DNA of 63,986 nt, the filler included, from Cladosporium halotolerans (taxonomy: Eukaryota): NCBI RefSeq assembly GCF_011745625.1. It is 5 parts of 5 records of this genome, joined end to end, with 100 filler letters (N's around TTAATTAATTAA, not from the genome) between each part and the next. Parts side by side here need not be neighbours in the genome. Positions count along the whole stretch, not along the records: positions 13,490 to 26,818 come from NW_027191569.1; 4 more parts are not named here. One strand, written 5' to 3'. The position numbers and the translations under genes were made by a program. How positions within the stretch are numbered: the stretch's first letter is position 1; each line of letters opens with the position of its first letter. Shown here one piece after another: positions 5,518 through 25,546 of the stretch. Below the pieces are notes generated by a model that was not told the DNA's origin, ran no database searches, and saw only the letters and a program-made list of their open reading frames with translations.

Positions 5518-6705
5518 ATGCCGAAACTACGAGACGTCTCCCATCTCGTGCAGAACAGTGCATCTCGTGCATCGCGAAAAAGAGCTTGCTCAGAGAACGG
5601 CGGCCCGGAAGCCAGTCGTCGACGTCCATCCTTGAGCTTTTTAGTCTCAGACTTCGTCAAGACAGGCACGCAAAACAAGGCTGGGTCCCTGCGTGAACGA
5701 GACATTCATGATGGAACTGGGGCAGAGGACGGACACGGAGCGCCCGCGAAAACGGTGGGATCTGAGCCGTTTGCCTCGGCAGGCGATACGAACACCGGCG
5801 TCAGCGACGTTGCGGTGAGCAAAGACGGCGTCGAGGATGGTGAAAAGTTGTTGATGGAAGTTGGGGACCAGTCGAAGGCGCGTGGTTCAGTGGCCGCAGA
5901 TCAACCCGTGGATCATGGTGAACGCATGATAAACAACGACCGCCCCGGCACCAAAGAATCATGGGATGGCATATTTGAGGGCGTAGCCGAGTCGACAGGG
6001 ATTGACGAAGGCAAGTTGGACAACCGTGACACAGCCGACGACGCAGAAGAGTCAAGCCCAGGTTCAGGGAGCATGTCCGATAATGCTGCAGAGGAGCCTT
6101 CTGGCTCGTCCCCGAGCCGACAGCAATCTGTCTCCTCTACCGGTTGCCCGCCCGTGCAGGAATATTTCGTCGTAAAAGAGAACAGAAAAACTCCGAATTG
6201 CAAACCCAAGATCTTTCGCACAGACCTCGCTAAACGCAGCAACGTAGAAATTTGGCGGCAATTACAAGAACTGCAGACCGTCCAGCATGCAGGTGTTCAT
6301 TACTGCCTGGATGAAGTTGTCTACGTTTACACCTCTGAGGGAGATGATTCACCCGCCAGGATCCGGGAAATCCGCGATACAAAGGATGACAAAGGCAGGA
6401 TTGACATATGTGTGTCCTGGCTCTATTCGGAGGAGGAGGTGAGGCCTACCTGCAACAATCCTGAAGATTGGTCGAGCGGCGCCACTCATATCGACAGCGA
6501 CCGGCTTCAAATCGTGCCGTGGGACACGTTGAATGGCCATCCTACTAAAATGGAGGTCCGACCCTGCCCAAAGAAGATTTTGAGCTTCGGTAAGAAGTTC
6601 AATAGGATCTTGAAGCGCGATGACGCGGCTCTGAAGAGATTGAAATTGGCCAACGAACATGGCGCGGAAATTTCCAGGCCCCAGCGCATGAGGATGCTAT
6701 CGTGA
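5518..6705 (+). CDS. BAH domain protein with acidic low-complexity N-terminus
   Basis: YCLDEVVYV..PARIREIRD..ICVSWLYS..HIDSDRLQIVPWDTLNG fits the BAH pattern; first ATG at 5518 within ORF 5473..6705. Confidence 0.7.
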   Translation: MPKLRDVSHLVQNSASRASRKRACSENGGPEASRRRPSLSFLVSDFVKTGTQNKAGSLRERDIHDGTGAEDGHGAPAKTVGSEPFASAGDTNTGVSDVAVSKDGVEDGEKLLMEVGDQSKARGSVAADQPVDHGERMINNDRPGTKESWDGIFEGVAESTGIDEGKLDNRDTADDAEESSPGSGSMSDNAAEEPSGSSPSRQQSVSSTGCPPVQEYFVVKENRKTPNCKPKIFRTDLAKRSNVEIWRQLQELQTVQHAGVHYCLDEVVYVYTSEGDDSPARIREIRDTKDDKGRIDICVSWLYSEEEVRPTCNNPEDWSSGATHIDSDRLQIVPWDTLNGHPTKMEVRPCPKKILSFGKKFNRILKRDDAALKRLKLANEHGAEISRPQRMRMLS

Positions 6706-8252
6706 GAGATAGAAACGCATACAACGGGTACGAAGAACTGCAAAGCACGTCACGAATAAAGAAGAAGGTAAACGGGACGATGACGAGCATGTGGGAAGGC
6801 GTTGTAAACAAAGATGTGCCGCGATGTTCTGGCGAAGATTGCTGGAAAGCAGCGTGGAGCGATGCCGTCTGGACCGTCAGCTGGGCCGTTTAGCGGAATG
6901 CAGCAAAGCTCGACACCACAGAAAAATGAAACAGTCGCCAACTCTTCGCGGCGGCGCCGCGGGCCCGTCTCGCGAGACAGGTCTGTCGGGCATTGGAGGC
7001 AGGTGACGGCTGCAGTAGCTTCGCAAGGACGTGTCCGATCATGACACAGCTTTACGTTTCCGCCTCAAACGATCGACGTAACGCTCTCCGCTGAGTATCG
7101 GACTCGCTGAATCCTCGACTGGCTCGGCACTGGCTCGGCAGGCGGCAGGCCAGACTGGCGCGTCTATGTCGCAAGTTCTCTTCTGCTGGACCTGATCGAG
7201 TACGCTTCAGCTTCTCCGGCCTTGATACCGAAGAAGCTACTGCGAACGAGAATGGCTGCTGCTGCAAAACTACGCAACGACATGCTTATCGCGCTCCTAG
7301 ACGCTGGAGATGCCAGCGCTCACCTCAGTGTTGGCGGTATTCAATAGGATCTCCCGGAAAGAATTCGGAATGGCGTTGCTGGCGCAGTGCGCGGGCACTC
7401 TGTGTGTGCGGCTATTGCGAAAACGATCGGCGCAGTCCGATTGTCACTCGGACCTGTCCCGATGGCAGACGCAAATGCATGAACGACGCCCCCGTGCCCG
7501 CAGAGTTATCGCAGCAGTACTCGCGGCCGCAGGTTGGCCGTTCATACACCACCGTAGGACGAGGATGGTGGGATCGCTCGATCCAATGGTGGTCCTGCGC
7601 CAAATACGCCGCTTAGACGCAAACAAGATTACTACGAATCTCGACAGGGGTGTCAGCAGGGAGGTCTTGCAGCGCACCTCCCGAGGCGGGCATGTTGTCA
7701 ATAGAACGTGGGCTGAAGCGCCGCCAAAAGGGCAGCGGGGAATTGCCGAGGACGTTGAAGTCTTTAAGGAACCACCGTCGCCATCACACCATCGCGCTCT
7801 GGGCGACGGCATCTGCAACCTGCATTCGGGGTTCACTTTTGAAAGTTGCAACTCAGATTCGACGGGCCACAAGACGTGCTTTGTATCACGTTTCACGTTC
7901 TCTTGATTCACTAACGATGCATCGGCCTGAAAACAACGGCGATTCCCGTCTATTGCAGGCATATGAACTTGGTAGGAAAAGTATGGAAGCCGACTGCGCC
8001 GTGCCGTCGGACGTCCGAAGGCTGTCTGCCATCTCGACGACACACACCAACCGTCGAAGGAAATGTCAAGAAGCTGGTGGGACTGTCTTTCCACATGTTT
8101 CAATGCGACGGTCTACAGCAATACGTGTCGCAGACACCTCGGACGTTTCTTTTCGCTTACAGCCATTCAAGCAAACAAGAGCTCCGAAGAAATAAACGCG
8201 GCTGAGGAATATCGTTTTTCTTATTATGTAACCTTGAAGGGTTGGCATACAC

Positions 8253-9015
8253 AGTGGCCTAGCGGTTCATGTGCCCCGGCGTACGCGAGCTGGTAAACGA
8301 ACCTTGATATCGAGCGAGATTCCAGAATCGTTTAGTAACATGACAAAAATGCTTCGCTTGACCGGCAGTGGTGTCACGCCATTGACTTGCAGTGCGATCT
8401 TATTAACCTGTCGTGCGACTGTGTTACCCTGCTATGCTCTGCTGTGGGTCAACCTCTATACGTCATCGCATCGCTAGACTACGCTTTCCAAGAAGTGAGT
8501 TCTCGCTCCTATGTCTTTCCAGCGAGTGGGAGAGCACGGTTCACGTCCGCACAAGGCTGGGTATTCTCCTTTTGCCTCTTGAAGCTTCGGCGAAAGATCT
8601 TGAGCTTGTCCGTCGACCCTCATAGAACATTGGTATCGCTGATGAAGCATGGAAAAGAGTAGTTACGACAATTCAATCACAACGAAACAACAGCTATGTG
8701 CGAAGCGTGGATCTTTTCCTTTCACTCGCAAAAAAGGCACTAGAGCAGAAGATTCCAAGCACTTCTTGGAAAGCGTCGTCTGCCCGTACGACGACGTATA
8801 GGAAGTTGATCCACAACATCGCGCCACAGCGTCGCACAGCATGGTGACACAGTCGCACTGCGCGTCACTCATGTGTCGCTGCTCCAGCTGAGAGATATTA
8901 CTGTTGTGGTGTTACTGAACGATTCGTGCTTCTCGCTTGATATCGAAGCTTATTTACCCCCTTGCTTAAAGACACGAAGCACTCGGACACTGTGTCTACT
9001 CACCGCTGCGGCCAA
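8253..9015. repeat. Degenerate long inverted repeat (foldback/MITE-like relic)
   Basis: Left arm (e.g. ggtaaacgaaccttgatatcgagcgag ~8292; gcgactgtgttacc..acgctttccaagaagtg ~8415-8497) matches the reverse complement of ~8700-8960; outer ends approximate. Confidence 0.7.
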
Positions 9016-10053: not shown

Positions 10054-11851
10054 GTGCCTTGCAGCCCTCATTCGATCTGGGCATGCGAGCTTTGGGACAC
10101 ATTTTGACATTCGATACAGCGTATGCAATGGGAAACCGACTTTGATAGTGCCGCTTTGATAGTTGAGCTTGTCGGTGCCTAAGGGTGATTGGTCCACCAT
10201 CAGCGAAGTCGTGCCCGCACCCATCGAAACGACACCTCTCAGCATGCGCTTTATTTCCGCTTCGCTTACGTAGGGGTGCAGTACGGGTCAGTTACTTCTT
10301 GTGTGAGCTTCAGTGGGTGTCTGTTAACCGCACCTGGAGATGAAACTACCGCATCATCAAAGAGCTCTTCTGGCCTGGAATAGAGCTTGAGTTCGCAAAA
10401 TTTTTGGATCAATGGCGCACAGATGGTCTCACCAGCGTCTCTACTGAGCACCAAACCAATGCCTGCGAATGACACAATGATTGAAAGTAAAGCTTCATAC
10501 GTTTGCGGTGTCTTGGCCATGACGATGAGTAAGGCTATGTCGAAGACGAATGTCCCTTTCATTGTTGAGTTGCTCAGGGATAAAAGCATTCTCCCGCTGA
10601 TCCGCTTGCCTTATGTCCAAGGTCGATCTCCGGATTGCAGGATCTACCTTGTTGCTTCTTTGGCTTGCTTTGAATCCGGCTCTGGGACTGTATGCTCAGC
10701 AGATGCTGTATGTCATTCTGTGCCGTTTGCTCTGTGGCTGTATGGTCTGCAACTCGTTCTTGTTATACGATCGTATATTCTCATATTTCTGCTTGTTCTT
10801 TTGTGGTAGTGTTTTGCTCTCTAGCTGATGCCATATTTTCTTCGACTTTCTTTGGACAATTGGGTGCTTGTACATGGCGCTGCTAGAAAGCTTCACTTGG
10901 GCCCGGCATACGCGAAGGATCGATGTGATGCGACTCGTGAAGCATGTATCAAAATCCACCCACGTTCGGAAGTATCGCAACATTTGTCTATTCAAGGATC
11001 TGCTCCAAATTAATTTCAACCTGACGCTCTCGACTTTCATCAGGCCATTCGCAAGGTTGGAGCACTAAGCTTTCCGTCTTCTCAATAGCGCACTAGACTA
11101 CCACCTGCAATTGTGTACTTGCCAGGTGAGCACTTTCGCTGGTGTGCATTCGAAGTTCGGGCGCCGAATCTACGTTGTGACGCGAGAATTCCTTTGCGAA
11201 GCCTCTGCATGAGAAGACTCGCTTCAACCATCTGTAGCGAAAGGCCATCGCGGTCATGTGGCAGCCTGTGGGATCAGAGTCGAGACAGCAAGTATGGGGG
11301 GACGAGGCGTAGCAGCCTGCCATCCATCGGAACATGCCCTGGCTTCAAGGAAACGGGTGAAAAACATTGCAAAACCTTACTGCCTCAAAGCCACACTGCT
11401 TTCGACCCCGGATGTGCCAGTTCGTGTCTCTGGTGTCTCCCGTCAATCCCTAGGACCGCAGCGCTGTGCTTGGCAAAAGTAAGGCTTGGCGTCGGTGCCC
11501 AGCCGAAGCGCCGGACCAGGCCAAGCTTGACAGGCGCTGTTTCTCGTCAGATCTTACGCGCGCGCTTATTTCCTCTGTTCGGACTCTGCCTTCAGCTCGT
11601 CAGCTATGGGATGCGGTGATGGTCTCGGGAGAGTGAGAGACATGTTTACTGGTCATACCGCAGGCCGCCATATGCATAGACCACTCCCTTGTCGGCGCTC
11701 TCCCATCACTACCGAACATAAGCATGGCAGCCTCAAGCCCGACGGCAACCTCCCTTCCTAGCGGGATACCCGAGACCGACCAGGAATTGCTGAAATTTGC
11801 GCAGGCAAGGGTGATCTGCAGAAGCTGAATAAAATCTGCGCACAGTGGGAA

Positions 11852-13292
11852 ATGACACCTCTCGAAGTGTACAATCACTTTGGAATATTCGCTTGGTCAA
11901 AGAAGTTCCTGCGCGGATTGGGACAATTCTCGAGAAATGTACCAGACAGGCAGACCGAAATGCAATTGCTTAATGAGAGCCAGAAGTCGTCGCAAAGACG
12001 CGAGAAGAAGACCAGTAACCCAAAATTTTGGTGCGTGGCCGACGTTGAAACAGCGATAGAATCCCTGCACGATCAGGACAATAGTACTCCCAGCACTTCG
12101 AAATCAAATTCCGCAAGGCGCTCGCCAAAGATGCGTAGAGGGAGAGAAGTGCAAGAAATCCATACACCGCCGCACACCGTTACTGCGGAAAAGACTAGGA
12201 TGCGGGCCCCCTCCCCTAGAGGCATACCGAGTCGAAGCAGTGGAGCTGCTAATCTGTTCGTTCGATGTCATCCACTCAAGCACCTCTCCGTTTGATGATG
12301 CAGAGTCGCCCACTTTGACAGCAGAAGGCCTCCTCCATACACCAATATCATCCCAATCATCAGATTTAGTAACGTTGGCTGCAGCTGCAGAACAGACCCT
12401 ACGCCGCCTCAAGTCGTGCGGAACCGCAAGCGACCTGAAGAGTCTGTAGGCGCAAGCTCTTTACATCATTCTGTTGCAGCCGCTGACCAGGCGCCTCCTA
12501 TGCAAGAATTGATCACCCAATTTGACCACCAGTTAGCACTGGTGGACGACGAGCCGCCGTCCTGAACACCCCCGATGGTAGGCCCTGTCAATACACTATT
12601 GCGGGCTTTCAATCCGAACCCACTAAATTTCCACGTCGCGCCCGCGGGAGTGCTTGAGACAGAAAGGACGTCAAGCAATGCTCAAACAATAATGGAGTCG
12701 AGCGGCGGATGCACCTTCTTCCTTCTTCCGCTGTATCTTGTGGATACAGCGCATTGGGCATTGGTGGTGATACGAGACCGAAAGCGAGACTACTGCGGTG
12801 TTTTTCACACTCTTGGCCCTCCCACGTCCGCCGAATCCTTCCAACCACTCGTAGCCTTGCTTGCAGAGCAGGGCTTTCTGCGGGCAGGGCAGTCAGCGAA
12901 TCTCGATCTATTCCCTGAACTCCGTCAGAAGCGCGATGCAGATGGAATTGTTCTATTGGCAGCTGTGGCGCTTCACACCTTGCATGAGAAACCGGGCAGA
13001 ACTTTGGGGCGAGTTCCTGCGTGGTTGTCTCTTCTCTCGGGATGAACAATCAGGAGCGTGGTGGCGGAATCACCGTACCGATCTGATCAAGCAAACCTTA
13101 TCAGAGATGGCGCGTGATACGGTCATCAACTTAGAACAAAAGACCAAGGACGCGGAAGCGCTGAGCAATGTCCTCAAACAAGTACGCTCGTACATAGAGC
13201 AATCAAAGTCTCTTCGCGGGCTGACCCAGTCACAGTTGCGAAGCGCTGATATCCGTCGGAAGTTGGGGAACCTCGAGTCGTGGCATCAAAAC
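11852..13292 (+). pseudogene. Ulp1/C48-like SUMO protease gene, frameshifted, truncated by hAT insertion
   Basis: LLPLYLVDTAHWALVVI (catalytic His motif); RQKRDADGIV where Q..DCG is expected; split over ORFs 11852-12295, 12240-12449, 12575-13045, 12861-13292. Confidence 0.5.
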
Positions 13293-13389
13293 CAGGGTGT
13301 TCATCAGACAGACAGACAAGATTTTCGGGAGTGTCTGGTCTGCTTACCTAAGGAGCGGTGGCTTGTCTGTCTGTCTGAGAAATGGCAAT
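13293..13389. mobile_element. hAT transposon terminus (TIR CAGGGTGTTCATCAGACAGAC) with CAGA subterminal repeats
   Basis: 21-bp identity to the terminus of the hAT at 51622; runs into the gap. Confidence 0.75.
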
Positions 13390-13489
13390 NNNNNNNNNNN
13401 NNNNNNNNNNNNNNNNNNNNNNNNNNNNNNNNNTTAATTAATTAANNNNNNNNNNNNNNNNNNNNNNNNNNNNNNNNNNNNNNNNNNNN
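13390..13489. other. Artificial contig linker (N-TTAATTAATTAA-N)
   Basis: 100-nt spacer with all-frame stop cassette. Confidence 0.97.
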
Positions 13490-13861
13490 CTTACCTGGTG
13501 GCGCGAACATCATCACAGGTTTCCTGTCCTGAGGCATCTCGCTTTTGAGATCCTCGCAGCGCCAGCAAGCTCTTCCGCCGACGAGCGAATCTTTTCGATG
13601 GCTGGGGACGTTGTCAACGATGAGCGACCAAACACGATGGAGGAGTTGGCAGAGGCTTACCAGGGTTTACGCAGCTGGTACTCGGAAGGACTACTGTGAT
13701 GGACATAAGCTTCTTACACTCCCGAGCACCCGGGAGGACCGTGCACCGAACGAACGACGAACATCCGAGTGGACCCTGAACAAATGAACAACACCTGTCC
13801 AAGAAGCCGAACGAACGAGCACTACGCCTGTTCGGTGTTCGTTTGTTCATTGCCCACCCTG
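13490..13861 (+). mobile_element. hAT transposon 3' end: dimerisation domain (13490-13699) plus right TIR
   Basis: Manual translation LTWWREHHHRFPVLRHLAFEILAAPASSSADERIFSMAGDVV..LRSWYSEGLL*; GAAC subterminal repeats; ends ...cattgcccaccCTG. Confidence 0.85.
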
Positions 13862-15416
13862 GTTGGAGAGGGTTAGAAGGGAGAGGAGGGTGGGATTTAA
13901 GTTTGGACCGGGCACACAAGAAGGCGAATAAGAGAGAGAGGGAGGTGTGATGGGTAGGGTGGATGCAGACAGCCGTTAGCGTGGCGGTTGGGGAGCGGCG
14001 TGGACAGGTTGTGAACACAAGCGTAGGATGCGGATGCATTAGCGTAACGAAGTGCCCGAAAGGTCGGTTCGAGGACAGAAGCGAGGTGGCGGGGGAAGGA
14101 ACGGGAAGGATGGAGGGTGATTGATTGGGAAGGACAGAGAAAGACGAAGGCGTAGTGAAGGGGACGGATGAAGGTCAAGTTCAGACATAGTGTGTGTTGA
14201 CAAGTGTAGAGGGTAGGGGTAGGTATGTGAGTGGGATGCCCGTACGGAGGCATAGGACGGCACGAAGTGGCATGATCGAAGGCAGGGGTGGAAGGAAGAC
14301 GTTTAGAGGTGGCAGTGAGAGAGGATGGAGGATAGGGAATAGTGAGGTAGGAATAGAGTTTGAGAAGGGAAGAGGAGAGTTTTGGGAGGAAGTATGGATG
14401 TTTCAGAGAGAGAAGAGGGGGAGAATTTTGATTTTGGGTCAAAAGAGGGGGGGATAGCGGGGGAATGGAGAAGAGAGAATAAGACGAAGGCAATCGACAA
14501 AGCAAGCATGGAGTCGGTGTTTGAGTAGAGGATGTCGAGTCGGATTATGTCAGCAGGGCGTGAACGTGGGGATGAGTCAGCAAAATCAAAATCATGATCG
14601 GAACGTATACAACGCAGCAAGAGACAAAGAGAGCAAGCGGCGTCATTTTATGGCAAGGATGGTTGGAGCGAGATTGAAAGTGGAATCGGGAGGGAGAAAG
14701 AAAAGTGGGTGAGAAGAATAAGGTAAATAGGGAGAGATGAGGAAGAAAAGAGAAGAAAAGAGAAGAAAAGAAAAGAAAAGAAAAGAGGTGAGGGTTAGGG
14801 TGTATAGAAGATTGGGAGTGTGATGTAGTGGAGGGTTAGTTGAAGTAAGTGAGGGTTGAGTGAGGGAGGGGGGATTAAAGAAGTGAAGTGGGGAGTGAAT
14901 TGGTAGGTGAAATGGAGGGAGTGTGATGAGGGGAGAGTTTGGAGGATGATAATAATTAAGGTGAGTAAGAAGAATGAGGTGGAGAGGGAGAGATGGGGAG
15001 AAAAGAAGAAAAAAAAAAAAAAAGGGGGGTTTTTTTTTTTTTGTTTTAAGAAGGAAGAAGAGAATGAGAGAGGAAGGAATGAAATGGTAAATGTAATATG
15101 AAGGAGAAGAGAGAGAGAGAAGGATGAGGGTTAGGGTGTATAGAGGTTGGTAGATTAGATTATAGAGTGGATTGTAGGAGATGGATATGAGGGTGTATAG
15201 AAGTTGAGGAGTAAGGGAAAGGGTTAGGGGATAGTAGAAGAGAAGAGTAGATTGATGGAAGGTAAGAGAAGGGTATGAAAGGGGAAATAGATAGAGGATA
15301 GTGTTGATTAAAGGTGGTAGGGGAGGAAAGGAAGGAGGAAGAAGAAAGGAGAAGATAAGGTAGAGGAGGGTAGGTAGTTAGGGTGTTTTAGGGTTTTAGG
15401 GTTAGGGTTAGGAGTT
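13862..15416 (+). repeat. Strand-asymmetric G/A-rich tract, including a 729-nt C-free stretch (14688-15416) with embedded GGGTTAG motifs
   Basis: No C between 14687 and 15417 by inspection; (GAAAA)n; A15-G6-T13 at 15009-15042; repeated gagggttagggtgtataga. Confidence 0.9.
15378..15412 (+). repeat. Telomere-type repeats (TTAGGG/TTTTAGGG) downstream of the LINE 3' UTR
   Basis: TTAGGG TG TTTTAGGG TTTTAGGG TTAGGG TTAGG. Confidence 0.85.
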
Positions 15417-16200
15417 CAATTTAGAATATCGAAATGCAGCCTAGCAGATGGCGGCAAAGATAAGCTACATACATTGAAGGTCAGACTGCAGAGAGGAGAG
15501 ACAAATCCATGCGCTTCTCTCTGACCAACTGAGTCAGTCGGATCGGGCTGGGGTACCGGATACACCATTCCCCTTTCATGTGCCACCATGCCTGCAGAGG
15601 ATGGATCACGTATAGCCTTCGCGGGCACCCGACGATCCCATCGATGATTCCCATGGTCCTTCCTGACGATACACCCACCGGGTGCACGCCCCATGGACAG
15701 ACAGCGTTGGCCGGTATCCCGCCATCAGGTTTCACTCCCACATCCAGATTAGATATTGTTCGATCGATTGGCAGCCGACTGCCTACGCCTGCGGTGGCAC
15801 GAACTAACATCTTCTCCAGCAAGGAGCCTCAGCGAATCCTCGCGAGACAATCCCAACCGATGGAACCTGCTTTCATCGCCGCCAGGCGACACGGTTATCC
15901 CAGGTGTAAGACCCGAGTTCCCGTCGGTTCGATCAGAAGCCGAGACCACCCAATCCAGGGTACGTTCGCCTTCCTTAACCCGGTCGACACCTCACTTCCG
16001 GGGGAATGTGCACGCCTCGTGATGGCAGGTCTAACGCACGCAGCACGCAAGCCGACTCTCCCAACCTACTACGCGGCCACAGCCAGCCGAGTATGAGTGG
16101 GCCCCGAAATGGGAAGTGCTGAATCCACAGCTCCACCCAAAAGAGAACCCCACTCTGGAATGGCAAACCCATGCCAGGCATGCGAGGGGTCAACACGACC
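15417..16200 (-). ncRNA. Putative highly structured RNA (LINE 3' UTR)
   Basis: Stems that need G:U pairs on the minus strand: 15525-15541, 15669-15687, and 15875-15890 inside the 15855-15929 stem; no convincing ORF. Confidence 0.5.
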
Positions 16201-16673
16201 AAACGCTAGCGGAGTACCACCCCAAGAAGATTTCCACGCTCACTTCTAGGAGCACCCTCTGTAGAAAAAGGTCGAAACAAGAAGCGGGCCAGAGTCCACT
16301 GGCACCCACCCACAACACCTGGAGTCCACCAGCAGTATCGTCACCCATCAAGCCAGCCGGAGTCCACCGGCATCAGCTAGATAGATGTGATCGATCCTCC
16401 TCTCCAGAAGACGACGTCTGGAGTCCACCAGCAACGCCACGATCCCACGAGCAGGGCCCGGAACAAATCCCGACCCCGGACGGGACGAGAGTTCAGCCCT
16501 ACGAGTCAAGCCACACTAAGCACAGCCACATCGTCGAAGCCACACCTGGAAACGGCCACACTCGACACGGCATCGACACCGTCCCCCCTCTCGACATCCT
16601 CAGGTCATGACCAGGTTATGAGACCAGGTCAGTCCGTCATCGGATACATCGATCAGGGTGTGATGTGGCCGGT

Positions 16674-19600
16674 TCAGTTCGTACCATCCGATGGTACCAA
16701 GTCACGTGGTCGCGGCGCCACAGAGGATTCTGTCGGTTCGAGAAGAGTCGGGTCATTCTCCAATTGCATCCGTGCAGAATAGACATCGCCAAGTGCTCTA
16801 CGTATGGCAGCAAGCGCTGGACCGGCACGATGATATTGCCTAGTATTCAGTAGGAAGTCCAGATGGGTGAAGCTGGCGGACACACCAATGCCGAGCCGCT
16901 TCGCCATTTCGCTCTTCCGGCGTAGCTCGGTGCCAGACAACTGAGGCGGCCGTGGCAAGTACCTACAGTCCTCGTGGCCACGGCGGAATATCACGTCTGG
17001 GCCACAAGCACATAGTTTCCCGAATTGGAAGCGGCCCATTCTGTATCTCACGAAATTTTGTTGATGTTCCAAGGGAGCGAAGAAGACCCAATCGGCACCG
17101 TACAGTGAAGTGGTAGATCGAGATCGCGCAGTCAAGCGGGTGAGATGTCGCGACTGACAGGACAGCATCACCTCGAAGCGTCGCGAACGCCGAAGATGGA
17201 GACGCAGAAGACGACGCGAGCAAGGCAGGGATCGACTCTGCCGAGCGATCGAAGACCATTCCGGTACGTCTCGAAGGCTGTCGAGGAACGGGCGACCGAC
17301 GGGGGCTCGAGGTAGGAAAGGTCGAGAAGCCAAGCAAGAACTTAGCGGACTGTCGGCAGGTGCGAGGCTGAGCAGCCGCTGGAAAGAAGTATGCAGGTGT
17401 GGAAAGCGGATCTCGGGCTCGAGGATACCGCAGAGGTTGGCACCGACGGCGGACCCGTCAGGGCTGCAATCAAGAATCCACCCAATGAGGTCCTTCCAGC
17501 CCACCGTGGCAGCTCGGAAAGCTTTCTTGTTTGCTTCGTTTTGGCGAGACCAGGCAAATATCAGAGGGGCGCCATATTCGAACATAGGGGCAAGATATCT
17601 GCCGTATATGCGCAGACGGTGGGCTGGACCCCAACTGTCCGAGTGGAGGCGTAGGAAGGATGCACGGCCGGTGGCTTGGGAGATGCGTTTGCTCAGATAG
17701 CCGGCGAAATCAATCCCGTTCGATCCCACAGGGAAGCCAAGGTAGGTGTAAGACTCAACGATCGGCAAAGGCTTCCCACAGATGAGGATAGGATGCGACG
17801 CGTGTTCGAGAGCGACAGCGCGTCCAAGAACGAGCCCGCACTTTTTGACATTCACAGCTATGCCAGCCTCAGCGCTCCACTCCGTCAGGAGATCGGCGAG
17901 GCAGCGCAGTGAGGGCAGATCTTGTGCGAGGAGGACGCCGTCGTCGGCATAGAAAAGACTCCGAGGAATGCCGACAGCAGAGTCGTTCAAACGCACGATC
18001 AACTCGTCGATGTAGATGTTGAAGAGGTAAGGTGGGAGAGGCGAGCCTTGCAAGACACCTCTCGTGCGAGGGAACCAGTCAGATGACTGGCCGTTGACGA
18101 GGACGCGGGAGCGTAGACCTCGAAAAGTGAGGTTTTCTATCAAGTTGCGAATCCTGCCCGGGCAGCCACGCCGAACCAGCAGGGCACGGAGGCGTGTGTG
18201 ATCGACCATATCGAACGCTTTCTCGAGGTCTATGAATGCAGCGTAGCGGACCAAGCCGGTCGAGAGCAGGTGGTGCACGACTGCAGCGTTAGTGAGAGTA
18301 GAGTAGTCGCCGCGAAAACCAGCTTGGGTGGGATGCAGCTTCCCCCAACCGGATTTGTCGAAAAAGTGTACGAGCAAGAGCCTCTCGAACAGTTTGCGGT
18401 GCATACATATCAGAGTGATGGGCCTGACGTTGTCGACGTCTCGAGGACGATTAGTGTCCTTGGTAACCATGTGTACATCGGTCGAGTTCCATGAGGCGGG
18501 AGTGCTTCCGCTGGAGAGGCAAAGATTGAACAGTCGACCGAGCACTTTAGGATAGCACGACGGTAGCAGTGCCTTGATGACACGCATGTGCACGCCGTCC
18601 AAGCCGCAGGTCTTGCTCGCATCTTGTCTGCGGATCTCCCTCACCACATGGCTTTCTGAGAGCTCATCGCGGCTCTGGTCTGCTCCGGCGCCGTCGACCG
18701 GTTCGTTGGACACCAAGGCTCGACCGGCATACCGGTCTGCGAGTGAGTCAGATATCTCTCGCAAAGCCGAGAGCCCCCCCGAACGTCCACGCTCGGAAGG
18801 TAGAATGTCGCCATTCTCTCGAGACTCGGCCGCGGCCGACTTGTAAAGTAAAGTGCTGACTTGCGGGTCTTGTCGGTTGGCGGGAACCTTCTTCCTGCTT
18901 ACGCCAGCCGCGGTGGAAGATCTTTTCTGACCAAGGAACCTCCGACAGATCGATCGGACCAGAGCAATCAGACGGCGTTCCAGAGCGGCAGCGTTGACTG
19001 GCACTGCAGCAGACAACAAGCTGAGCGACCTCGTCCCCTCGTCGAAAGCGGCGCACATGTCCCTCCGCACAGTTTCGTCAGACAACTTTCCCAGGTGGAA
19101 GCGAATGGCAGCCGGTGCGTCACCCTGGCACGAAGGGGTCGGCTGGCGAGCACTCAGGTGCAGGCAAAGGGTATAGGCGTGATCGGTGGGCAGGCCTATC
19201 GATGGATTGTCCAGCAAGAAGAAGTTGGCATCGGCGACCCGCCCAGACTGGACGAAACAGTGATCCACGGTGAGTAGCTTCCTCAACACCACCCCGGCAG
19301 GGAGACCGGGTTGTGGTGAAGCATCGGGCTCGGTAGCCTCGAGGGTAGTGAACCCGTGCGAGCGAGCGAAGTCGGACAGAGCTTCCACCCTCTCGGGCGG
19401 GCCAGGTCGACCGAGCTGTGTCTGCAGCCACGGCAAGCGAGCGTTGACGTCTCCCAGGACAACGTGCGACGCTGCCACCGAGCCGAGGGCAGCGACGACG
19501 TCCTCGCTAGACATGCTAGGCTGCAGATAGACGGCGGAGACGGAAGAGGCATCGGCGTGGAAGGTGACGGTCGACGGCGTGGTCCGGACGTCACCCACGA

Positions 19601-19952
19601 GGCGACCTCGTGCGGAAGCCGAGGCCAAGAGGTATATCCCGCCGCCGTTGCGGGTACGCTGGAGCGATGGCGATGGAAGGGGTGTCGAAGCGACGAAGCG
19701 GCGGTCGCGGACATGCCGCTCGTGCCCGACGAACCACGTCTCTGCAAGGAAGAGAAAATCGAAGGAGGTGTGGAGGAGCTTGAGGCAGGCCGTCCACTTC
19801 ATCTGATCGAGTCCGTTGACGTTCACATACCCGACTCTGACGCTAGCCGAGCCTCCTCGCAAGTGCGCCGATCCTGCGGACTTCCTGCTCAAAGGCTGCT
19901 GTGACTGTGGCTTGCTTCGCACGTGCCCGGATGGCTTTCTTTCCCGGGCCAT
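16674..19952 (-). CDS. LINE ORF2: AP endonuclease + reverse transcriptase + C-terminal Cys/His knuckle
   Basis: APE: YVNVNGL, LAETW, GGGIYL, VLGDVNAR, DHCF, TDH; RT: RPITL, QAGFR, FIDLEKAFD, GVLQGSPL, YADD, YLG; C-terminal CACG..RGHEDC; 1092 aa intact. Confidence 0.95.
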   Translation of the reverse strand: MARERKPSGHVRSKPQSQQPLSRKSAGSAHLRGGSASVRVGYVNVNGLDQMKWTACLKLLHTSFDFLFLAETWFVGHERHVRDRRFVASTPLPSPSLQRTRNGGGIYLLASASARGRLVGDVRTTPSTVTFHADASSVSAVYLQPSMSSEDVVAALGSVAASHVVLGDVNARLPWLQTQLGRPGPPERVEALSDFARSHGFTTLEATEPDASPQPGLPAGVVLRKLLTVDHCFVQSGRVADANFFLLDNPSIGLPTDHAYTLCLHLSARQPTPSCQGDAPAAIRFHLGKLSDETVRRDMCAAFDEGTRSLSLLSAAVPVNAAALERRLIALVRSICRRFLGQKRSSTAAGVSRKKVPANRQDPQVSTLLYKSAAAESRENGDILPSERGRSGGLSALREISDSLADRYAGRALVSNEPVDGAGADQSRDELSESHVVREIRRQDASKTCGLDGVHMRVIKALLPSCYPKVLGRLFNLCLSSGSTPASWNSTDVHMVTKDTNRPRDVDNVRPITLICMHRKLFERLLLVHFFDKSGWGKLHPTQAGFRGDYSTLTNAAVVHHLLSTGLVRYAAFIDLEKAFDMVDHTRLRALLVRRGCPGRIRNLIENLTFRGLRSRVLVNGQSSDWFPRTRGVLQGSPLPPYLFNIYIDELIVRLNDSAVGIPRSLFYADDGVLLAQDLPSLRCLADLLTEWSAEAGIAVNVKKCGLVLGRAVALEHASHPILICGKPLPIVESYTYLGFPVGSNGIDFAGYLSKRISQATGRASFLRLHSDSWGPAHRLRIYGRYLAPMFEYGAPLIFAWSRQNEANKKAFRAATVGWKDLIGWILDCSPDGSAVGANLCGILEPEIRFPHLHTSFQRLLSLAPADSPLSSCLASRPFLPRAPVGRPFLDSLRDVPEWSSIARQSRSLPCSRRLLRLHLRRSRRFEVMLSCQSRHLTRLTARSRSTTSLYGADWVFFAPLEHQQNFVRYRMGRFQFGKLCACGPDVIFRRGHEDCRYLPRPPQLSGTELRRKSEMAKRLGIGVSASFTHLDFLLNTRQYHRAGPALAAIRRALGDVYSARMQLENDPTLLEPTESSVAPRPRDLVPSDGTN

Positions 19953-20898
19953 CGGCGGCGTGGAAGTCGGCGGCCAACGTGCTGGCCAAGGGGAGTGGCG
20001 GAGGTGCTTCTTCTCTGGCGTCAGACGAAGAGACGTCGGCGTCAGAAGGACTGATCTCGATCAAAGCCCCAACCCCAGGTGGCCCAGAGCAAGCAGGCGA
20101 GGAAGAGGAGGGAGGCGTTGGAGGGCGTGCCACCGCGCGCAGAGCGAGGCCCTTCGCTTCGTGTATGCCCAGGTACTCTTCCGGTGACAGGCTGTTCTCT
20201 CGTGTCCGGTCGCCGCCCTCACACAGAGCTCCGATGAGCCCGTCCAGCTTGGCTCGGATGTCGACCAGGCCGTCGATCAAGCCGGGCGGCGAAGATAGGA
20301 TGTGCTCTGCCCCGACGACGTCCACCGCGGTCGGCTCAGTCGCGGGAGGATCCTCAGACCTTTCTCCACAGGTGGCCGCCTCCACAGGGGGAGGTAAGCT
20401 GGTGGCGGGAGTGAAGAAGTTCAGGCGACGTTTGGTCGACGGGGGAGTCGCTTGTGCGGCAGCTGTCCGTTTCAGAGGAGTGGGCGCGACGCAAGGAGAG
20501 GGCCCGTCTTGCAAGAGGAGCCCCAAACGACAGTGCTCGGGTCCCTTGTCCTCGAAGCCGGCGCGGATTCCTTCCACGATCGAACGGAAAGGTTCACGAG
20601 CGACTTGCGTCTTGGCCCAGTCGATGTAAGCGGCGTTGCCCAAGCTCGGGCAGGCGAACTTGCCGTTGGTGGTGCAGCACCACCTGCGATAGACCCTGTC
20701 CTCGCCGTCACGCTTGCCGGCCAGGTTCTTGACGTAGTTCCCCTTGCGTTCCCTCTCGGACGAAGAACAGCTCTTGCAAGGCAGGTAAGAGGCGTACTTG
20801 GCGTGCAAACCCTCCGCGACCAGGGCCAGGCCGCCCTCGGGGCTGACGGTCGAAGGCTTTCTGGTGCGGCGTGGAGCGAACCTGCTGGAGATGGGCAT
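19843..20898 (-). CDS. LINE ORF1 (Cys-motif protein), overlaps ORF2 by 110 nt
   Basis: ATG 20898 (MPISSRF); LPCKSC...RWCCTTNGKFAC; Pro/Ser-rich linker; TATAAG about 75 nt upstream. Confidence 0.7.
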   Translation of the reverse strand: MPISSRFAPRRTRKPSTVSPEGGLALVAEGLHAKYASYLPCKSCSSSERERKGNYVKNLAGKRDGEDRVYRRWCCTTNGKFACPSLGNAAYIDWAKTQVAREPFRSIVEGIRAGFEDKGPEHCRLGLLLQDGPSPCVAPTPLKRTAAAQATPPSTKRRLNFFTPATSLPPPVEAATCGERSEDPPATEPTAVDVVGAEHILSSPPGLIDGLVDIRAKLDGLIGALCEGGDRTRENSLSPEEYLGIHEAKGLALRAVARPPTPPSSSSPACSGPPGVGALIEISPSDADVSSSDAREEAPPPLPLASTLAADFHAADGPGKKAIRARAKQATVTAAFEQEVRRIGALARRLG

Positions 20899-21359
20899 GG
20901 GAGTGTGGCAGTGAAGAAGGCGACGATTGGGAAAGTGACGAGAGAGTCCCCCAGAGCCCAGGAAGGGCCCATACTTATAGCCGGAGGCACACGTCGTTGG
21001 AGCACGTCGAGATCGATCGATCACTCCAATGGCCGTGATATCGTTTCGAAAACTGCATCGCCAGCCTCTGTCACGCTACATGCGTCGTGGGATGGCGGCC
21101 GGCGTGCATGAGGCACCCGCATACAGACGCACACGTCGTCCGATCGAGCGTGTGATCAGACGAGCGCAGCGTCCCAGGCACAGAACCAGCCAGGCCTCGA
21201 TCAATCGTGGGGCCACTTCCACATCACTGCAGGAGGTAAAGGTCAAAGCAAGCAGAGAGAGACATCACAGGGACCGGTAGAGCTTGGAGCGGGCAAGCGA
21301 GATTTAAATACAGTCTACAATGCAGAACAACCTCGTTCGTACCATGGCATGGGGTGTAA

Positions 21360-22913
21360 TCACGTGACATCCGTCTCTTCCAGGAAGGCGCCGTCCTGAG
21401 TGAAGGCATCTTCCTCTTCGTCTCGCGCGGGCAGAGACGGCAACAGGATCGAAGGGTCTCGACAGTCGCGGCCCATTTCTTCGAACGATACCTCCTCGAG
21501 CCTCAACCGCACCGGAGGCTTCTTCCCACTCAAGGCGCCTTCTACCAGCGACCATGTCCGTTCGACCATCGTTGCGTCCGGGCGGTTGTGACGTCGTAGA
21601 ATGTTCAGCCAAACGTCAAACTGCGTGGCCGAGAGCGTCTGCTCCACCCAAGAATTCGTCACAGCGCTGCTAGGCAAGAGGGCAAAGATGCCAGGGCCAA
21701 ACTCGGCCCGCAGACGCGCCCACCGCTCTCCGTAATGCAGCTGGTGCTCGAAGCGCCTCGCCTGCCGCCGGTATTCCTCCCCTTTCGGGTCCAGGTCGGG
21801 GTGAGCTTCTTTGAGTCTGGCCTTCTTCACTTCGCCGAACTTCTTCTTCCAGCCGAGGTTGGGTTTGACGGTGGGTCGCAACAGTGCTTGGAAAGCTTCC
21901 CAGAAGTCAGCCAGCCTTCCCCGACGCACGACGGCGCGCACAAAGTCGTCGGCATCGTCGCAGAGCGCCCAGTACGCCGACACGTGTACGGCGACGATGG
22001 CCTCCTTGTCCTTCCCCTCAGGCACGCGCTCCGCCCACTCACCCCGGAGCGCCGTGGTCTTGCGTTCGACGTCGCCCTTCGTTTCGTACATCAGCCCATC
22101 CCGCCACTTGCGGCAGAGGCCAAGCAGGTCTTCCATGGCTCCAGGGCCGGCGACGGCGAAGACGGCGTCGAGGATCTTGTCAACCGCCACCGGAGAAGTT
22201 CGTGATGCTTTGCCCAGCCCCAGCTTGAGCATGGCTTCAGCTTCCGCCCGACCAGAGCGTGTGACGCCGGCTCCGATCTCCTCGACCACGGCAGGTGTCG
22301 ATGCCCTCTCGGAGGGCGGGCCAGAGGGGGTTGGCGAGATTGCTCGCTCGAGGGTGGAGACGACGTCTTCGGCGGCCAAGGGCGGGTCGGCATCGCTTCC
22401 CTCGACACTTGGCTCGACACCTTCGCCCTGGTCGTCTCCGGAGTCGTCGACGACCGTGGCTCTCGAACGTTTCCTCCGGCCAAGGTCCCCCTCTCCAAGC
22501 TCGGCCGCTTCCTGCCGCCGCTTGCGGTCCCTCTCGCGTTTGCGATTCTTGCTGGTGACGGCGAGAACGTAGCGTGGCAGCGCCGCAGTCCTCTCCGCCA
22601 CAGAGCGTTGCGACGCCGACACGAAGAGCGGGCCCGGCGTCTCGGTCAACTCGCGGTGTCGCCTTTCGTCGACGAATCCCTCCCCGTTGCAGGCAGCGCA
22701 GGAGTATCGCTCGCCGTTCGACCGTCGAGGCGAGGGTGTCTTCTGGAGCGAGGCCATGGCGTGGACAAAGGTGTCAAAGCACGAGTGGCGGGCGAGAGAG
22801 GTGGAAGTGGGCGCCATGCCACTGACGAGGCCGGCGGCGGGGCCATCACGCCGCTCGCACGAGACCTGCTGCCTTCGCGTGGCGGCGTGACGACGTGCAT
22901 TGCATCGTTCCAT
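21360..22913 (-). CDS. ORF0, uncharacterised protein carried at the 5' end of the LINE
   Basis: 517-aa open frame; CAAC motif, basic NLS-like stretch, helical domain YGERWARLRAEFGPGIFALLP; same strand and GC as ORF1/ORF2. Confidence 0.7.
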   Translation of the reverse strand: MERCNARRHAATRRQQVSCERRDGPAAGLVSGMAPTSTSLARHSCFDTFVHAMASLQKTPSPRRSNGERYSCAACNGEGFVDERRHRELTETPGPLFVSASQRSVAERTAALPRYVLAVTSKNRKRERDRKRRQEAAELGEGDLGRRKRSRATVVDDSGDDQGEGVEPSVEGSDADPPLAAEDVVSTLERAISPTPSGPPSERASTPAVVEEIGAGVTRSGRAEAEAMLKLGLGKASRTSPVAVDKILDAVFAVAGPGAMEDLLGLCRKWRDGLMYETKGDVERKTTALRGEWAERVPEGKDKEAIVAVHVSAYWALCDDADDFVRAVVRRGRLADFWEAFQALLRPTVKPNLGWKKKFGEVKKARLKEAHPDLDPKGEEYRRQARRFEHQLHYGERWARLRAEFGPGIFALLPSSAVTNSWVEQTLSATQFDVWLNILRRHNRPDATMVERTWSLVEGALSGKKPPVRLRLEEVSFEEMGRDCRDPSILLPSLPARDEEEDAFTQDGAFLEETDVT

Positions 22914-23009
22914 CGTTTCACCCCGTTGCTCGTTTGGCCGGATTGGGGATGTCGCGCAGGGCTCAACGCTGCGGACCGGCAGAGCTTAAACGGACGTCAG
23001 CTTAGGGTT

Positions 23010-23864
23010 TGAACCATAGCCGTCGAGCAATAGAAGCCGCCAGGTACCTCTTTGGCTCTGTTGAGAATGCTTCTCAAAGTGTGCGATCCATTCAAGCATG
23101 AGTTCGTCGTTCATATAGCCTGAATCGGCGACTCCTATAAGCGTTGCATCGTGAAGGGCTTGGAACCACGTGGATTGGTGCTGTTTCGCGGCGATTACGA
23201 GCATAGCTGGTATAGCTTCACCTGCAGCTGAGATGGCTTCAACCACTGTGAGGCTCTCACGGTTATTCGCAGTTGGTAGGAAGTGAGACTTCTCAGGATG
23301 CTCGGTAAGTATGTAATGGCTCTTCGAAGCGCCAATTCGAAAGCCTGTTTCATCCATGTTCCATATGTTTTCAGGTGTAATGCCATGGTCATGGATAACT
23401 ACCTTGAGCTTCTCATACCACCTCTCAATGTCGGCTAGGTCGTAGGCAGCCGCGCGAACAGCCTCAAGAGGTGCTTGCTTACGCTTCTTCCAAACCGGGT
23501 ATCGTTGAAGGAAGCGCGTGGTCCATGAGAGGCTGATCGTTGGTGGTAATGAGGCCTCTGAATGCGCACGCCGTAAGATCGAGTTTGCCGATATTGAGAT
23601 TGCGCGCGGCCGTGCATTCACTCCTAGAGCCTCACAACGCTTCAGCCACGTAACAAGTGCAGCCTCCTGATCGTTGTCAAGCTTCTTGTTTGTAGGCGCT
23701 CTTGTAGATCGTGAATCTACACCTCGAAGGCGTCTACCAAGGCGTTGGTAGGGAACATCGAACAACGTAGCCAAAAGGGTAATTCTCGGCGGTTCAGGCT
23801 GTTCAAATTGAAATTCAACAGCTTGATTAATCCGCTCTTCAATTTGTTGATACTCAGAAGCCAT
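23010..23864 (-). pseudogene. pogo/Fot1 (Tc1-mariner, DDE_1) transposase, truncated at LLLDGYGS
   Basis: psq/CENP-B HTH, IWNMDETGF, DSGYMNDE, RLLLLDGYGS, then AACCCTAA in place of the expected His codon; 13-bp direct repeats GATCGTTGAGCTG at 23918 and 23935 mark the likely TIR. Confidence 0.9.
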
Positions 23865-25205
23865 GGTGGGTGAATGGTATAGGTGAGAAGGCAGTGGATA
23901 CCTCAAAACACGACGTTGATCGTTGAGCTGAACCGATCGTTGAGCTGCACGGCACTCGCTCGCGAGTTCTGGCCGCGGGGAGCCTTGGCCGGCACGACTG
24001 CACGGATACCCTCTCCCCCTGAGCCCAGCTTAGAAAGGCCCTCTGAACGTGCCTGCCAGCTGAGAAGCTTTCCCTCACTTGCTGCAGATGAGCCTCTCGG
24101 ATTCCCAAAGGCACTATTAGGACCTGGAACCGCGCTATCAGTTCAGGACGATCCGACACTAGGCTTTCTAGCCCACGGCAGGTACGACTTTTGGAGAGGC
24201 GTGATGCCTTTCGGCTCTCAACAGACTCCTCCAGACGATTGCGCGCCCTGGGAACAGTTGGTATACTATAACTTGTCGACCTCATATCCTCCGTCAATCC
24301 CCCATGCCTGGCACCCGTCACAAGAACGTCAGCCGGCATTGTACGGCAACTTTCAAGAAGCCGGACATTCTAGTCTTATTTCCTCGAATGTTGGATACCA
24401 GTCACTGGCTGGGCAAGAAGTACAGCCGGTCGAAACAGCGACCTACGCCTCTCTCGATTTCCACCGTGCAACTACGCGGGGAGCAGTCAGCGGTCTTCAA
24501 CCGGCGCCTGGTAACACACTAGTGGAGTCCTTCGCAAGCTAAGATAGCCTTCTCTGCTTCTCCTCTTCCGCGCCAGCAGCGCCTCCAACCTCTGCAGCAT
24601 CTGGTACCCTCTCCTTGCCGAGTACCCGACTAAGAGGAGCGGACCCCCGCCAATCGCAGTAACTTTGAACGCCAACCTCACTGAAGAGTTTGGAATAAGT
24701 TACGTCTCATAGTGAGGTAGACGGAGCTCACCCCGAGGAAAAGGGGGGACACATTTTCCAAGACTAATGTCTGCTTGCACCGCTATAATAGGGCGGAAAG
24801 TATTCTGGTCAATATGGTGAGAATGGTCACTTACAAATGGTCGCTACCGAATGAACGTTGGCCCTTTGATCGACGGGAATGGATTCAAGTCCTCTCGCTC
24901 TACAAGTCCAGGTATCCAATCGAGTAAGATGAAAAAGCGCCGCGCGCTCTTATTGGCTGTTCACGATGATGATGATGAAGTTCATTCCGCCTGGCGCCAA
25001 GCATAAAGGGCAACTGACTGTCGCAGCCTAAGGAAATTGGGAGACCTCGGTCGAGAACTGCAGATCACGCTTGCCAAGACATTAGATAGGTCAGCCCGGT
25101 CAACCCGACCGTGGACTTTGACAGAAACAATCAACTCATGACTTTTGAGTATCACGCACTTTCACCTTCGACAGGTATAGCCGACAGCGGGACTTTAACT
25201 AAGGG

Positions 25206-25516: not shown

Positions 25517-25546
25517 CATTGACCCTGCTGAGCACTGGCACAGCGA

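Follow-up and report, generated by a model that had tools for sequence, protein, structure and literature searches.

A conserved, covarying kilobase-scale 3′ untranslated RNA directly before a short telomere-like tail in a LINE of Cladosporium halotolerans

The DNA examined here (63,986 nucleotides (nt), filler included; hereafter the window) comes from the fungus Cladosporium halotolerans (assembly GCF_011745625.1) and joins five parts of its genome, of which positions 13,490–26,818 are taken from NW_027191569.1. That part carries a 7.6-kb retrotransposon, a long interspersed nuclear element (LINE), that starts near position 23001 on the minus strand (as judged by comparison with a related copy, locus L002), encodes a reverse transcriptase (RT) and ends in a 3′ untranslated region (UTR) followed by a short telomere-like tail; its sense strand is the minus strand of the window. 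Recognition by a LINE of its own RNA through the 3′ end decides what the retrotransposon copies. Well-studied LINEs use one short stem-loop, whereas the family described here keeps a kilobase-scale fold that evolves more slowly than its own RT. The UTR is a conserved, non-coding and covarying sense-strand RNA that is found in truncated copies and in RNA libraries, and it recurs across the family.

The main open reading frame (ORF) of the element, ORF2, occupies 16674–19952 of the minus strand and encodes 1092 amino acids (aa), comprising an N-terminal endonuclease-like part, the RT and a C-terminal Cys/His motif. Pfam places RVT_1 at residues 506–741 (E 9.6e-26), and the nearest proteins of solved structure are the R2 proteins and LINE-1 ORF2p. 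Weak N-terminal matches to Exo_endo_phos_2 occur in five of 13 members of the ORF2 family, and one of the 13 matches Exo_endo_phos. In the N-terminal third, E/D-N/D-H positions are invariant or nearly so across 13 aligned homologs, and the named homologs come from Hortaea werneckii and Cladosporium. Because of the RVT_1 domain, the R2 and LINE-1 relatives, the weak matches to the endonuclease/exonuclease/phosphatase (EEP) fold and the conserved N-terminal acidic, Asn and His positions, the element is classed from its sequence as an apurinic/apyrimidinic endonuclease (APE)-type retrotransposon without long terminal repeats (non-LTR), that is, a LINE of active type with endonuclease and RT, of a Dothideomycete fungus. 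A Penelope-like or telomerase-type RT is ruled out by the LINE-type RT relatives and the endonuclease domain matches. Pfam, which returned only RVT_1 and the weak N-terminal EEP matches, gave no restriction-enzyme-like endonuclease in the C-terminus, and inspection by eye of the C-terminal part found the Cys/His motif and no RHD...E motif of the kind quoted in the accessible text of PMC12857005.

Metagenome contigs were scanned with 13 aligned homologous proteins as the query, which yielded 47 loci. Part or all of the UTR is carried by nine loci of the window's own subfamily, those named being L001–L006, L009 and L042; L003 and L006 are identical, and L007 stops before the UTR. Self-BLAST found no second copy of the element within the window. 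The position of the ORF2 stop is common to the homologs and marks the start of the 3′ UTR, which runs along the minus strand from 16673 to 15414, where the CCCTAA-like tail begins. The initial annotation had called this stretch between RT stop and CCCTAA tract unusually long, and at ~1.26 kb it is. The folded region outlined at that stage (15417–16200) was drawn too narrowly: structured and conserved sequence spans 16441–15402, and the best-supported array, 16441–16100, lies mostly outside those limits.

Over the last ~680 nt of the UTR, related copies share 88–94% identity, against 65–82% in the ORF. When the copies are compared with the window by BLASTN, the UTR module (16442–15398) is closer than the ORF in L002 (87.6% against 78.6%), L005 (83.9% against 69.0%) and L003 (81.5% against 79.5%), as are the first 486 nt of the UTR in L004 (80.7% against 68.3%). 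When four copies are aligned, pairwise identity averaged over each 100 columns is 0.89–0.94 for 16073–15480 and 0.53–0.86 for the coding stretch (windows 19852–16770). Variable columns make up 0.36, 0.27 and 0.74 of the first, second and third codon positions of the ORF, whereas the distal UTR, with 0.16, 0.18 and 0.17 in the three phases, is less variable than even the second codon positions. Since these substitutions lack 3-base periodicity, the distal UTR is non-coding, and coding potential of the UTR as a whole is ruled out by the absent periodicity together with indels of 1 nt.

A fold more stable than dinucleotide-shuffled controls had been anticipated, and on this point the single sequence disagrees. 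The sense strand of 15417–16200 folds at −309.8 kcal/mol, where shuffles average −308.96±6.92 (z −0.12; 10 of the 20 fold as well); the antisense strand gives z −0.71. For the hairpin-rich 286 nt at 16160–16445 the sense z is −1.17 (20 of 200 shuffles as good) and the antisense z −2.22 (4 of 200 as good); such low antisense scores are expected in the array because its hairpins are near-palindromic. With sense values so near those of the shuffles, the stability of the UTR is not in itself exceptional. What stands of the proposed folded domain is a conserved sense-strand fold argued from covariation; exceptional stability does not stand.

Covariation among homologs, which the initial annotation had named as a check, is present and exceeds the controls in three alignments. 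The proximal domain was aligned over 16441–16071 in seven copies (sequence-only MAFFT) and the distal part over 16100–15388 in five copies (alignment A5), with controls of 500 shuffles and of partners slid by 1–3 columns. In the proximal domain, 124 consensus pairs are paired in 93.3% of cells, and 37 of the 124 have changed on both sides, compared with 19.1±2.9 after shuffling (reached by 0 of 500) and 3–9 after sliding. The distal alignment holds 214 consensus pairs with 97.1% of cells paired, 16 of them changed on both sides against 7.7±1.9 in shuffles (again reached by 0 of 500) and 0–2 when slid. RNAalifold z-scores (120-column windows, 30 column shuffles) fall below −3 on the sense strand in six of 17 UTR windows, as against 0 of the 27 ORF windows used as control on either strand (ORF means −0.03 and 0.25). 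Five contiguous UTR windows over 16460–16104 score −3.2 to −5.2 on the sense strand, and the window 15863–15745 scores −5.29 sense and −0.62 antisense. Stems formed by chance in G+C-rich sequence, with identity owed to recent descent, would account for single-sequence z-scores near zero without any function; yet among these copies 74% of third codon positions vary and 17% of distal-UTR positions, and with covariation above all controls in three alignments this explanation has a negligible probability.

Pairings that need G:U had been taken to point to the sense RNA, and the aligned copies bear this out, with G·U cells far above A·C cells on the sense strand only. The ratios are 156:27 (proximal) and 152:16 (distal) for the sense structures, compared with 32:36 and 58:18 for structures predicted independently on the antisense strand. 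Consensus energies are likewise lower in the sense orientation (−127 proximal and −161 distal, against −67 and −128 kcal/mol antisense). Because of the sense G·U excess and the weaker antisense structures, the fold is assigned to the sense RNA. A function at the DNA level or on the opposite strand, be it as a promoter, a palindrome bound by protein, an antisense transcript or a hidden ORF, could draw on two plus-strand ORFs of 172 and 164 aa that overlap the UTR, on the near-palindromic hairpin stems and on the low antisense z-scores in the array. It is, however, highly improbable, given the absence of 3-base periodicity on either strand, the occurrence of 1-nt indels, the G·U excess over A·C for the sense strand alone, the asymmetry of the loops, and the sense bias across loci of both the UGGAYU-loop hairpins and the hairpins of the second subfamily.

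Three stems singled out by the initial annotation are all present on the minus strand, and they differ in how they have been kept. Stem 1 (CCGACUG-loop-CAGUUGG, 15525–15541) has 7 base pairs (bp), paired in 35 of 35 cells across five copies, with one compensatory change from G-C to A-U and two G-U states. Stem 2 (GUGCACCC-GGU-GGGUGUAU, 15669–15687) has 8 bp; 39 of its 40 cells are paired and one is broken, and it shows one compensatory series of C-G, U-G and U-A. These two are upheld by the comparison. The third, a multibranch stem of AACCGA.GGGAAC with GUUCC.UCGGUU enclosing GUCGCC/GGCGAU (15855–15929), is not: it is near-invariant, and its variable pairs, three in number, are all disrupted without compensation in one copy or more (A-U to C·U in one copy, C-G to C·A in one copy, and U-A to U·U in three of four copies). 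RNAalifold places two competing hairpins on the same bases, both with compensatory changes.

Reading from the ORF2 stop towards the tail, the minus-strand UTR opens with a box of ~45 nt (16592–16650) found in all eight copies that cover it (alignment A2, columns ~55–110); read by eye, it can form an AUGAC/GUCAU hairpin with a loop that contains GGACU. A variable spacer with large indels among copies follows at 16442–16591 (0.48 identity in the 4-copy profile, with a gap fraction of 0.58), and then the covarying proximal domain of nested and tandem hairpins (16071–16441). Four of these hairpins (4–5 bp, stems starting at 16431, 16370, 16332 and 16302) carry a UGGACU loop on stems of CUGG/CCAG, CCGG/CCGG or CCAG/CUGG, which are replaced by CUAG/CUAG in other copies. 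Two UGGAUU-loop hairpins start at 16131, in the proximal domain, and at 15961, in the distal domain, and there is one further UGGGUU hairpin in the proximal domain. The UTR with its tail (1296 nt) thus holds six UGGAYU hairpins, compared with a mean of 0.029 and a maximum of 2 in 2000 dinucleotide shuffles; the rest of the 64-kb window has two on the minus strand and none on the other. Among the 47 loci, 19 have between one and six sense hits each, and antisense hits are limited to five single ones. The number of hairpin units varies among copies, with joints that skip 69 and 125–126 nt in DNA and RNA contigs alike. GGACU, which matches the consensus for N6-methyladenosine, occurs five times in the 1296 nt and three times in the 3279 nt of ORF2. 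A literature search on the loop motif brought up only unrelated microRNA papers.

Upstream of ORF2, the minus strand carries ORFs of 393 aa (19843–21024) and 517 aa (21360–22913), both without Pfam matches and both conserved as DNA in L002 and L004. Their products are candidate RNA-binding partners of the hairpin array.

The distal domain (15482–16070, minus strand; identity 0.88–0.94), which holds stems 1 to 3, is the most conserved part of the element. It is followed by a terminal module directly 5′ of the tail (15414–15481, minus strand), made up of box 1 (ACCUUCAAU..GUAGC), a variable inner hairpin and box 2 (AUUGAAC), which can pair with box 1. The boxes are kept in 10 of 10 further copies, including relatives at 37–46% protein identity, and within the close group six pairs of the inner helices, numbered 28 and 29, have changed on both sides. 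When distant loci are searched with a profile of the close-group UTR, the ~85 nt at its end are all that is picked up, so that at the sequence level the 1-kb core is specific to the subfamily. The tail itself (15378–15413, minus strand) consists of irregular CCCTAA units and reads UCCUAA CCCUAA CCCUAAAA CCCUAAAACA CCCUAA. All complete copies end in the same manner, with the same box, then two to four CCCTAA units, then unrelated flanks, and in the copies with flank no poly(A) tail or long telomere array follows the units. The units of the window and of L003 are unevenly spaced, which suggests that slippage or re-alignment accompanied initiation.

The same arrangement recurs beyond the window's subfamily. 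Sense-strand (CCCTAA)2 is found in 16 of the 47 loci, in 14 of them 0.8–2.3 kb past the RT match, and in none in the reverse orientation; two adjacent TTAGGG units on the sense strand occur in 0 of the 47. A second subfamily (L010, L012, L013, L014 and L019) has UTRs that can be aligned with one another over ~1.1 kb at 69–75% identity, beside 66–70% for the ORFs. This alignment gives 215 consensus pairs, 89.6% paired, of which 70 have changed on both sides compared with 10–24 when slid, and a consensus energy of −150 sense against −85 antisense. Its proximal array consists of five to six GAC-N-URRGA-N-GUC hairpins, a motif with 20 sense and 0 antisense occurrences in 262,950 nt of loci. Because each subfamily has a proximal loop array and a terminal box-hairpin-box module, the layout is common to both: an array of UGGA-type loops comes first and the box-hairpin-box module last.

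Truncated copies and sequenced RNA extend the picture. L042 is a 5′-truncated copy with only the last ~390 nt of the UTR and the tail. One DNA run has a sequencing depth of 53–64 over 15504–16171, compared with ~24 elsewhere in the element, and several variant contigs stop in that interval. Three RNA libraries contain UTR contigs, covering 15470–16583 as variants and 15423–15627 and 16415–16630 as identical sequence; the parts of the element that lack RNA cover carry no meaning.

Comparison with known LINEs offers a function for such an RNA. According to the accessible text of the respective papers, the ORF2 proteins of stringent LINEs bind their cognate 3′ stem-loop (PMC4176376), and in SART1Bm the 3′ UTR and the tail fix the start of reverse transcription (PMC7265360). 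By analogy with these systems, the 3′ UTR and tail (16673–15378) probably act in cis as a folded sense RNA that serves as the ribonucleoprotein (RNP)- or RT-recognition and initiation module of a stringent LINE. Recruitment of the RT and the setting of the reverse-transcription start at the tract would be the most likely function of the UTR. Under this proposal the UGGAYU-loop hairpins may offer repeated binding sites for an element-encoded protein during RNP assembly, while a multi-helix core of ~600 nt, kept more strictly than protein-coding sequence, and a box-hairpin-box module adjoining the short (CCCUAA)2–4 tail would present the 3′ end. The ORF2 protein would recognize the UTR RNA in cis, as in stringent LINEs, and reverse transcription would start in the short tail, with TTAGGG complementary DNA (cDNA) pairing with or mimicking G-rich 3′ ends; the tail units would be copied from the RNA and not acquired from short telomere-like targets.

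The likeness to the stringent LINEs UnaL2 of eel and ZfL2 of zebrafish extends to a conserved 3′ element directly before a short tandem-repeat tail and to its retention in 5′-truncated copies; it may also extend to a stem-loop with a conserved loop and covarying stems, for which the helices next to the tail give compensatory changes in the close group and a less uniform picture in distant relatives. UnaL2 and ZfL2 differ in having a single stem-loop of ~60–80 nt, whereas the window element has ~1 kb of conserved structure, in which hairpins recur as an array and the core is better conserved than the ORF; its tail, moreover, is the host telomere unit, and binding by the ORF2 protein would here follow from the analogy. 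SART1Bm and TRAS1 of Bombyx are, like the window element, APE-type LINEs associated with telomere repeats, and the start set in SART1Bm by UTR plus tail is a parallel to the one proposed here. SART1 and TRAS, however, end in poly(A) and lie within long telomere arrays, which their repeat-specific endonuclease cuts, while the window element lacks poly(A), ends in two to four CCCTAA units and has flanks that are not arrays. The SART1 3′ UTR is 461 nt long, the one studied here about three times longer. A further proposed likeness is to the R2 3′ UTR, which is folded, recognized by the protein and able to start target-primed reverse transcription without need of poly(A). The R2 3′ UTR measures a few hundred nt, and its sequence is little conserved from one species to the next; the endonuclease of R2 is C-terminal and restriction-enzyme-like, and the R2 target, in ribosomal DNA, is fixed. 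In function, the nearest kin of the UTR studied here would be the 3′ tails of stringent LINEs together with the UTRs of R2 and SART1. The UTR of the window element is an unusually large and conserved form of an already known type of element and is not a relative of telomerase RNA.

A structured UTR might instead serve transcript stability, 3′-end formation, nuclear export, translation control or the evasion of silencing, with exchange of 3′ ends raising identity further. Such roles outside reverse transcription would fit the incongruent distances of ORF and UTR and the variable number of hairpin units (the skips of 69 and 125–126 nt), and the loops could bind a host protein, GGACU being found five times in the UTR and three times in ORF2. 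We nevertheless consider these roles unlikely, since the module conserved across the family adjoins the tail, where reverse transcription must start, since 5′-truncated copies retain the terminal module, and since the second subfamily has a long covarying UTR of other sequence, as co-evolution with a cognate protein predicts.

Several observations weigh against a UTR maintained for recognition by its own RT. Pairwise distances are incongruent, the copy nearest to the window being L003 by ORF and L002 by UTR, with L005 standing as an outgroup in the ORF only. Exchange of 3′ modules between lineages may therefore explain part of the extra conservation, so that not all of it need reflect constraint. 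The sense single sequence is no more stable than its dinucleotide shuffles, and the somewhat better antisense fold of the hairpin array (z −2.22) weakens the strand assignment there; antisense RNAalifold z-scores also fall below −3 in five of the 17 UTR windows. The sample amounts to 4–7 distinct copies, and the majority of distal-domain pairs are invariant, so much of the distal fold is carried by folding energy alone. As the RNAalifold structures and the pair counts come from the same alignments, the counts are somewhat inflated, and an artefact is unlikely because of the slid, shuffled and ORF controls. In the terminal module, the box 1/box 2 helix appears in the minimum-free-energy fold of only five of 10 copies, and the inner hairpin is not uniformly foldable in distant relatives, L019 breaking (by eye) the stem of the L012 type. 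Finally, the RNA-library contigs attest presence and not strand, ends or level, and DNA can occur in such libraries.

The initial annotation had compared the UTR loosely to a telomerase RNA, a comparison that the evidence does not support: there is no family match, the tract is 3′-terminal and not internal and has two to four units, and it belongs to a mobile element with 5′-truncated copies. An Rfam 15 scan of 13500–24500 (E up to 10) returned four chance-level matches, all at E of 0.43 or above and none near threshold, and on the sense strand neither a ribozyme nor a telomerase RNA was among them; the earlier failure to recognize a hammerhead, HDV, group I or group II core agrees with this result. 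One of the scan's matches, to 'Hairpin ribozyme', lies on the opposite strand and at 18.6 bits (threshold 65) is at chance level. The telomerase RNA of Pezizomycotina is a long structured RNA whose CCCUAA units are copied by an RT; telomerase RNAs come from stand-alone genes and have an internal template with a boundary element, a pseudoknot and a three-way junction. In the window element, by contrast, the tract is terminal, lies within an mRNA-like mobile element and is copied with it, in single short tracts.

The DNA that follows the tail bears on this comparison. Outside the conserved UTR, the minus-strand flank at 14688–15377 is free of G (GC skew 1.0; G fraction 0.00 in seven 100-nt bins), which with the tail makes 726 nt of sense strand without G (15413–14688), and G recovers gradually over the next ~1 kb. 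A G-free or G-poor 3′ flank is found in seven of 15 tail flanks (six of 14 with the duplicate locus counted once), with lengths from 0.1 to more than 2 kb, and ordinary sequence in the other eight. These flanks include L012 10178–11177 (at least 1 kb), L014 3679–5882 (~2.3 kb in L014/L023), L043 2042–3074 (~1 kb), and L002 10402–10502 and L029 4305–4466, both of which run to the contig end; the L002 flank is a telomere-like 12-mer array. The tracts begin exactly at the CCCTAA tail and stand on the 3′ side only, never upstream of an element. They are mutually non-homologous, T- and C-rich and without 6-nt periodicity, and CpA is depleted in those of L012 and L014. Descent of the G-free flank from a mutated telomere array is not borne out, for lack of lag-6 periodicity and too low an A content, nor is G-to-A hypermutation, because the strand is T-rich and not A-rich.

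A scaffold of the telomerase-RNA kind would have the UTR hold the RT while the terminal CCCUAA is copied repeatedly, adding telomere-like, C-free DNA to chromosome ends or breaks ahead of copying the element or in its place. The irregular, re-iterated units in the tails of the window and L003 would suit such a device, as would the helix that can form directly 5′ of the tract, the G-free or G-poor flanks on the 3′ side of seven of 15 tails, with the 12-mer array of L002, and a subtelomeric non-LTR family of Zymoseptoria that, in the accessible text, has one to three telomere hexamers at its 3′ end (PMC4522978). It is very improbable all the same, because no telomerase-RNA family is matched, the tract has two to four units in every copy, the G-free tracts are non-homologous and lack 6-nt periodicity, eight of 15 flanks are ordinary, and the protein keeps an endonuclease domain. 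A related conjecture, that the RNA-held LINE RT primes on G-rich 3′ ends and copies a G-free template repeatedly and imprecisely, so that the kilobase C-free/G-free tracts next to the tail of about half of the copies would be made earlier than the copy of the element itself, is given a similarly slight chance. The G-free tracts keep a small probability for a telomerase-like or end-healing activity of the LINE family.

With the cis-acting recognition module remaining the preferred interpretation, other telomere-associated retroelements supply further points of comparison. The nearest precedent by description is 'family 4' of subtelomeric non-LTR elements in Zymoseptoria tritici, which in the accessible text of PMC4522978 is 3.4–3.5 kb long, has a 3′ end that faces away from the telomere and bears one to three telomere hexamers, and is read as a putative endonuclease-less Penelope-like element, with no RNA structure described in that text. 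As far as that description goes, it resembles the window element as a Dothideomycete non-LTR element with 3′ telomere hexamers and a tandem repeat in its interior whose copy number varies; it forms tandem full-length and truncated copies, and its comparison with the 7.6-kb APE-type LINE of the window is by description only. The MoTeR and FoTeR elements of Magnaporthe and Fusarium, as portrayed in the accessible text of PMC12857005, have a C-terminal restriction-enzyme-like endonuclease and 3′ UTRs of 346–409 nt. On that portrayal they resemble the window element as fungal non-LTR elements that have variable tandem repeats and, at one end or both, short telomere motifs; the window element differs in its N-terminal EEP-type endonuclease and ~1.26-kb UTR. 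A search of the literature outside subscription journals turned up related systems only, and no published account of this UTR or LINE family. In the endonuclease-deficient Penelope-like elements Athena and Coprina, 3′ reverse-complement telomere repeats may pair with G-rich overhangs. There, as in the window element, short reverse-complement telomere repeats end an extended 3′ UTR; unlike them, the window element has an RT of LINE type with an endonuclease domain and no hammerhead match in Rfam.

The UTR offers many covarying helices for the study of RNA–protein co-evolution in LINEs and is a candidate multi-site RNA tag. It links LINE initiation to telomere-like sequence in the Dothideomycetes, where such elements had been filed as putative Penelope-like ones. 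The G-free tracts, if tied to insertion, would be a new phenomenon, and if repeated copying of the telomerase kind were true, the LINE family would be a system for chromosome ends or the healing of breaks, with a new mode of DNA synthesis.

At its 5′ end the window element abuts an ORF for a pogo/Tc5-type transposase (22986–23906, minus strand; HTH_Tnp_Tc5 and the first half of DDE_1) that ends in mid-domain exactly at the LINE 5′ end. The remaining half of DDE_1 has no match in 13 ORFs downstream of the LINE (10696–14647), and the idea that the G-free flank is the missing half of the interrupted transposase is thus not borne out either. The 5′ junction carries AAACCCTAA (23001–23010, minus strand), a word common to both ends of the element; target-site duplications of at least 5 nt were found in neither L002 nor L042, the window alone having this shared word. 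L010 has two related LINE copies in head-to-tail order (527–588; 6001–8952), as in telomeric LINE arrays, with ~5.4 kb between the terminal module and (CCCTAA)2 of the first copy and the RT of the copy downstream. Elsewhere in the window, a plus-strand (CCCTAA)2 at 32223–32234 was rejected as a copy of the module, since the terminal boxes are missing there and no RT ORF precedes it. Some 180 nt before it, the plus strand carries a perfect 17-nt tandem duplication that includes GGUGGAU (32008–32041).

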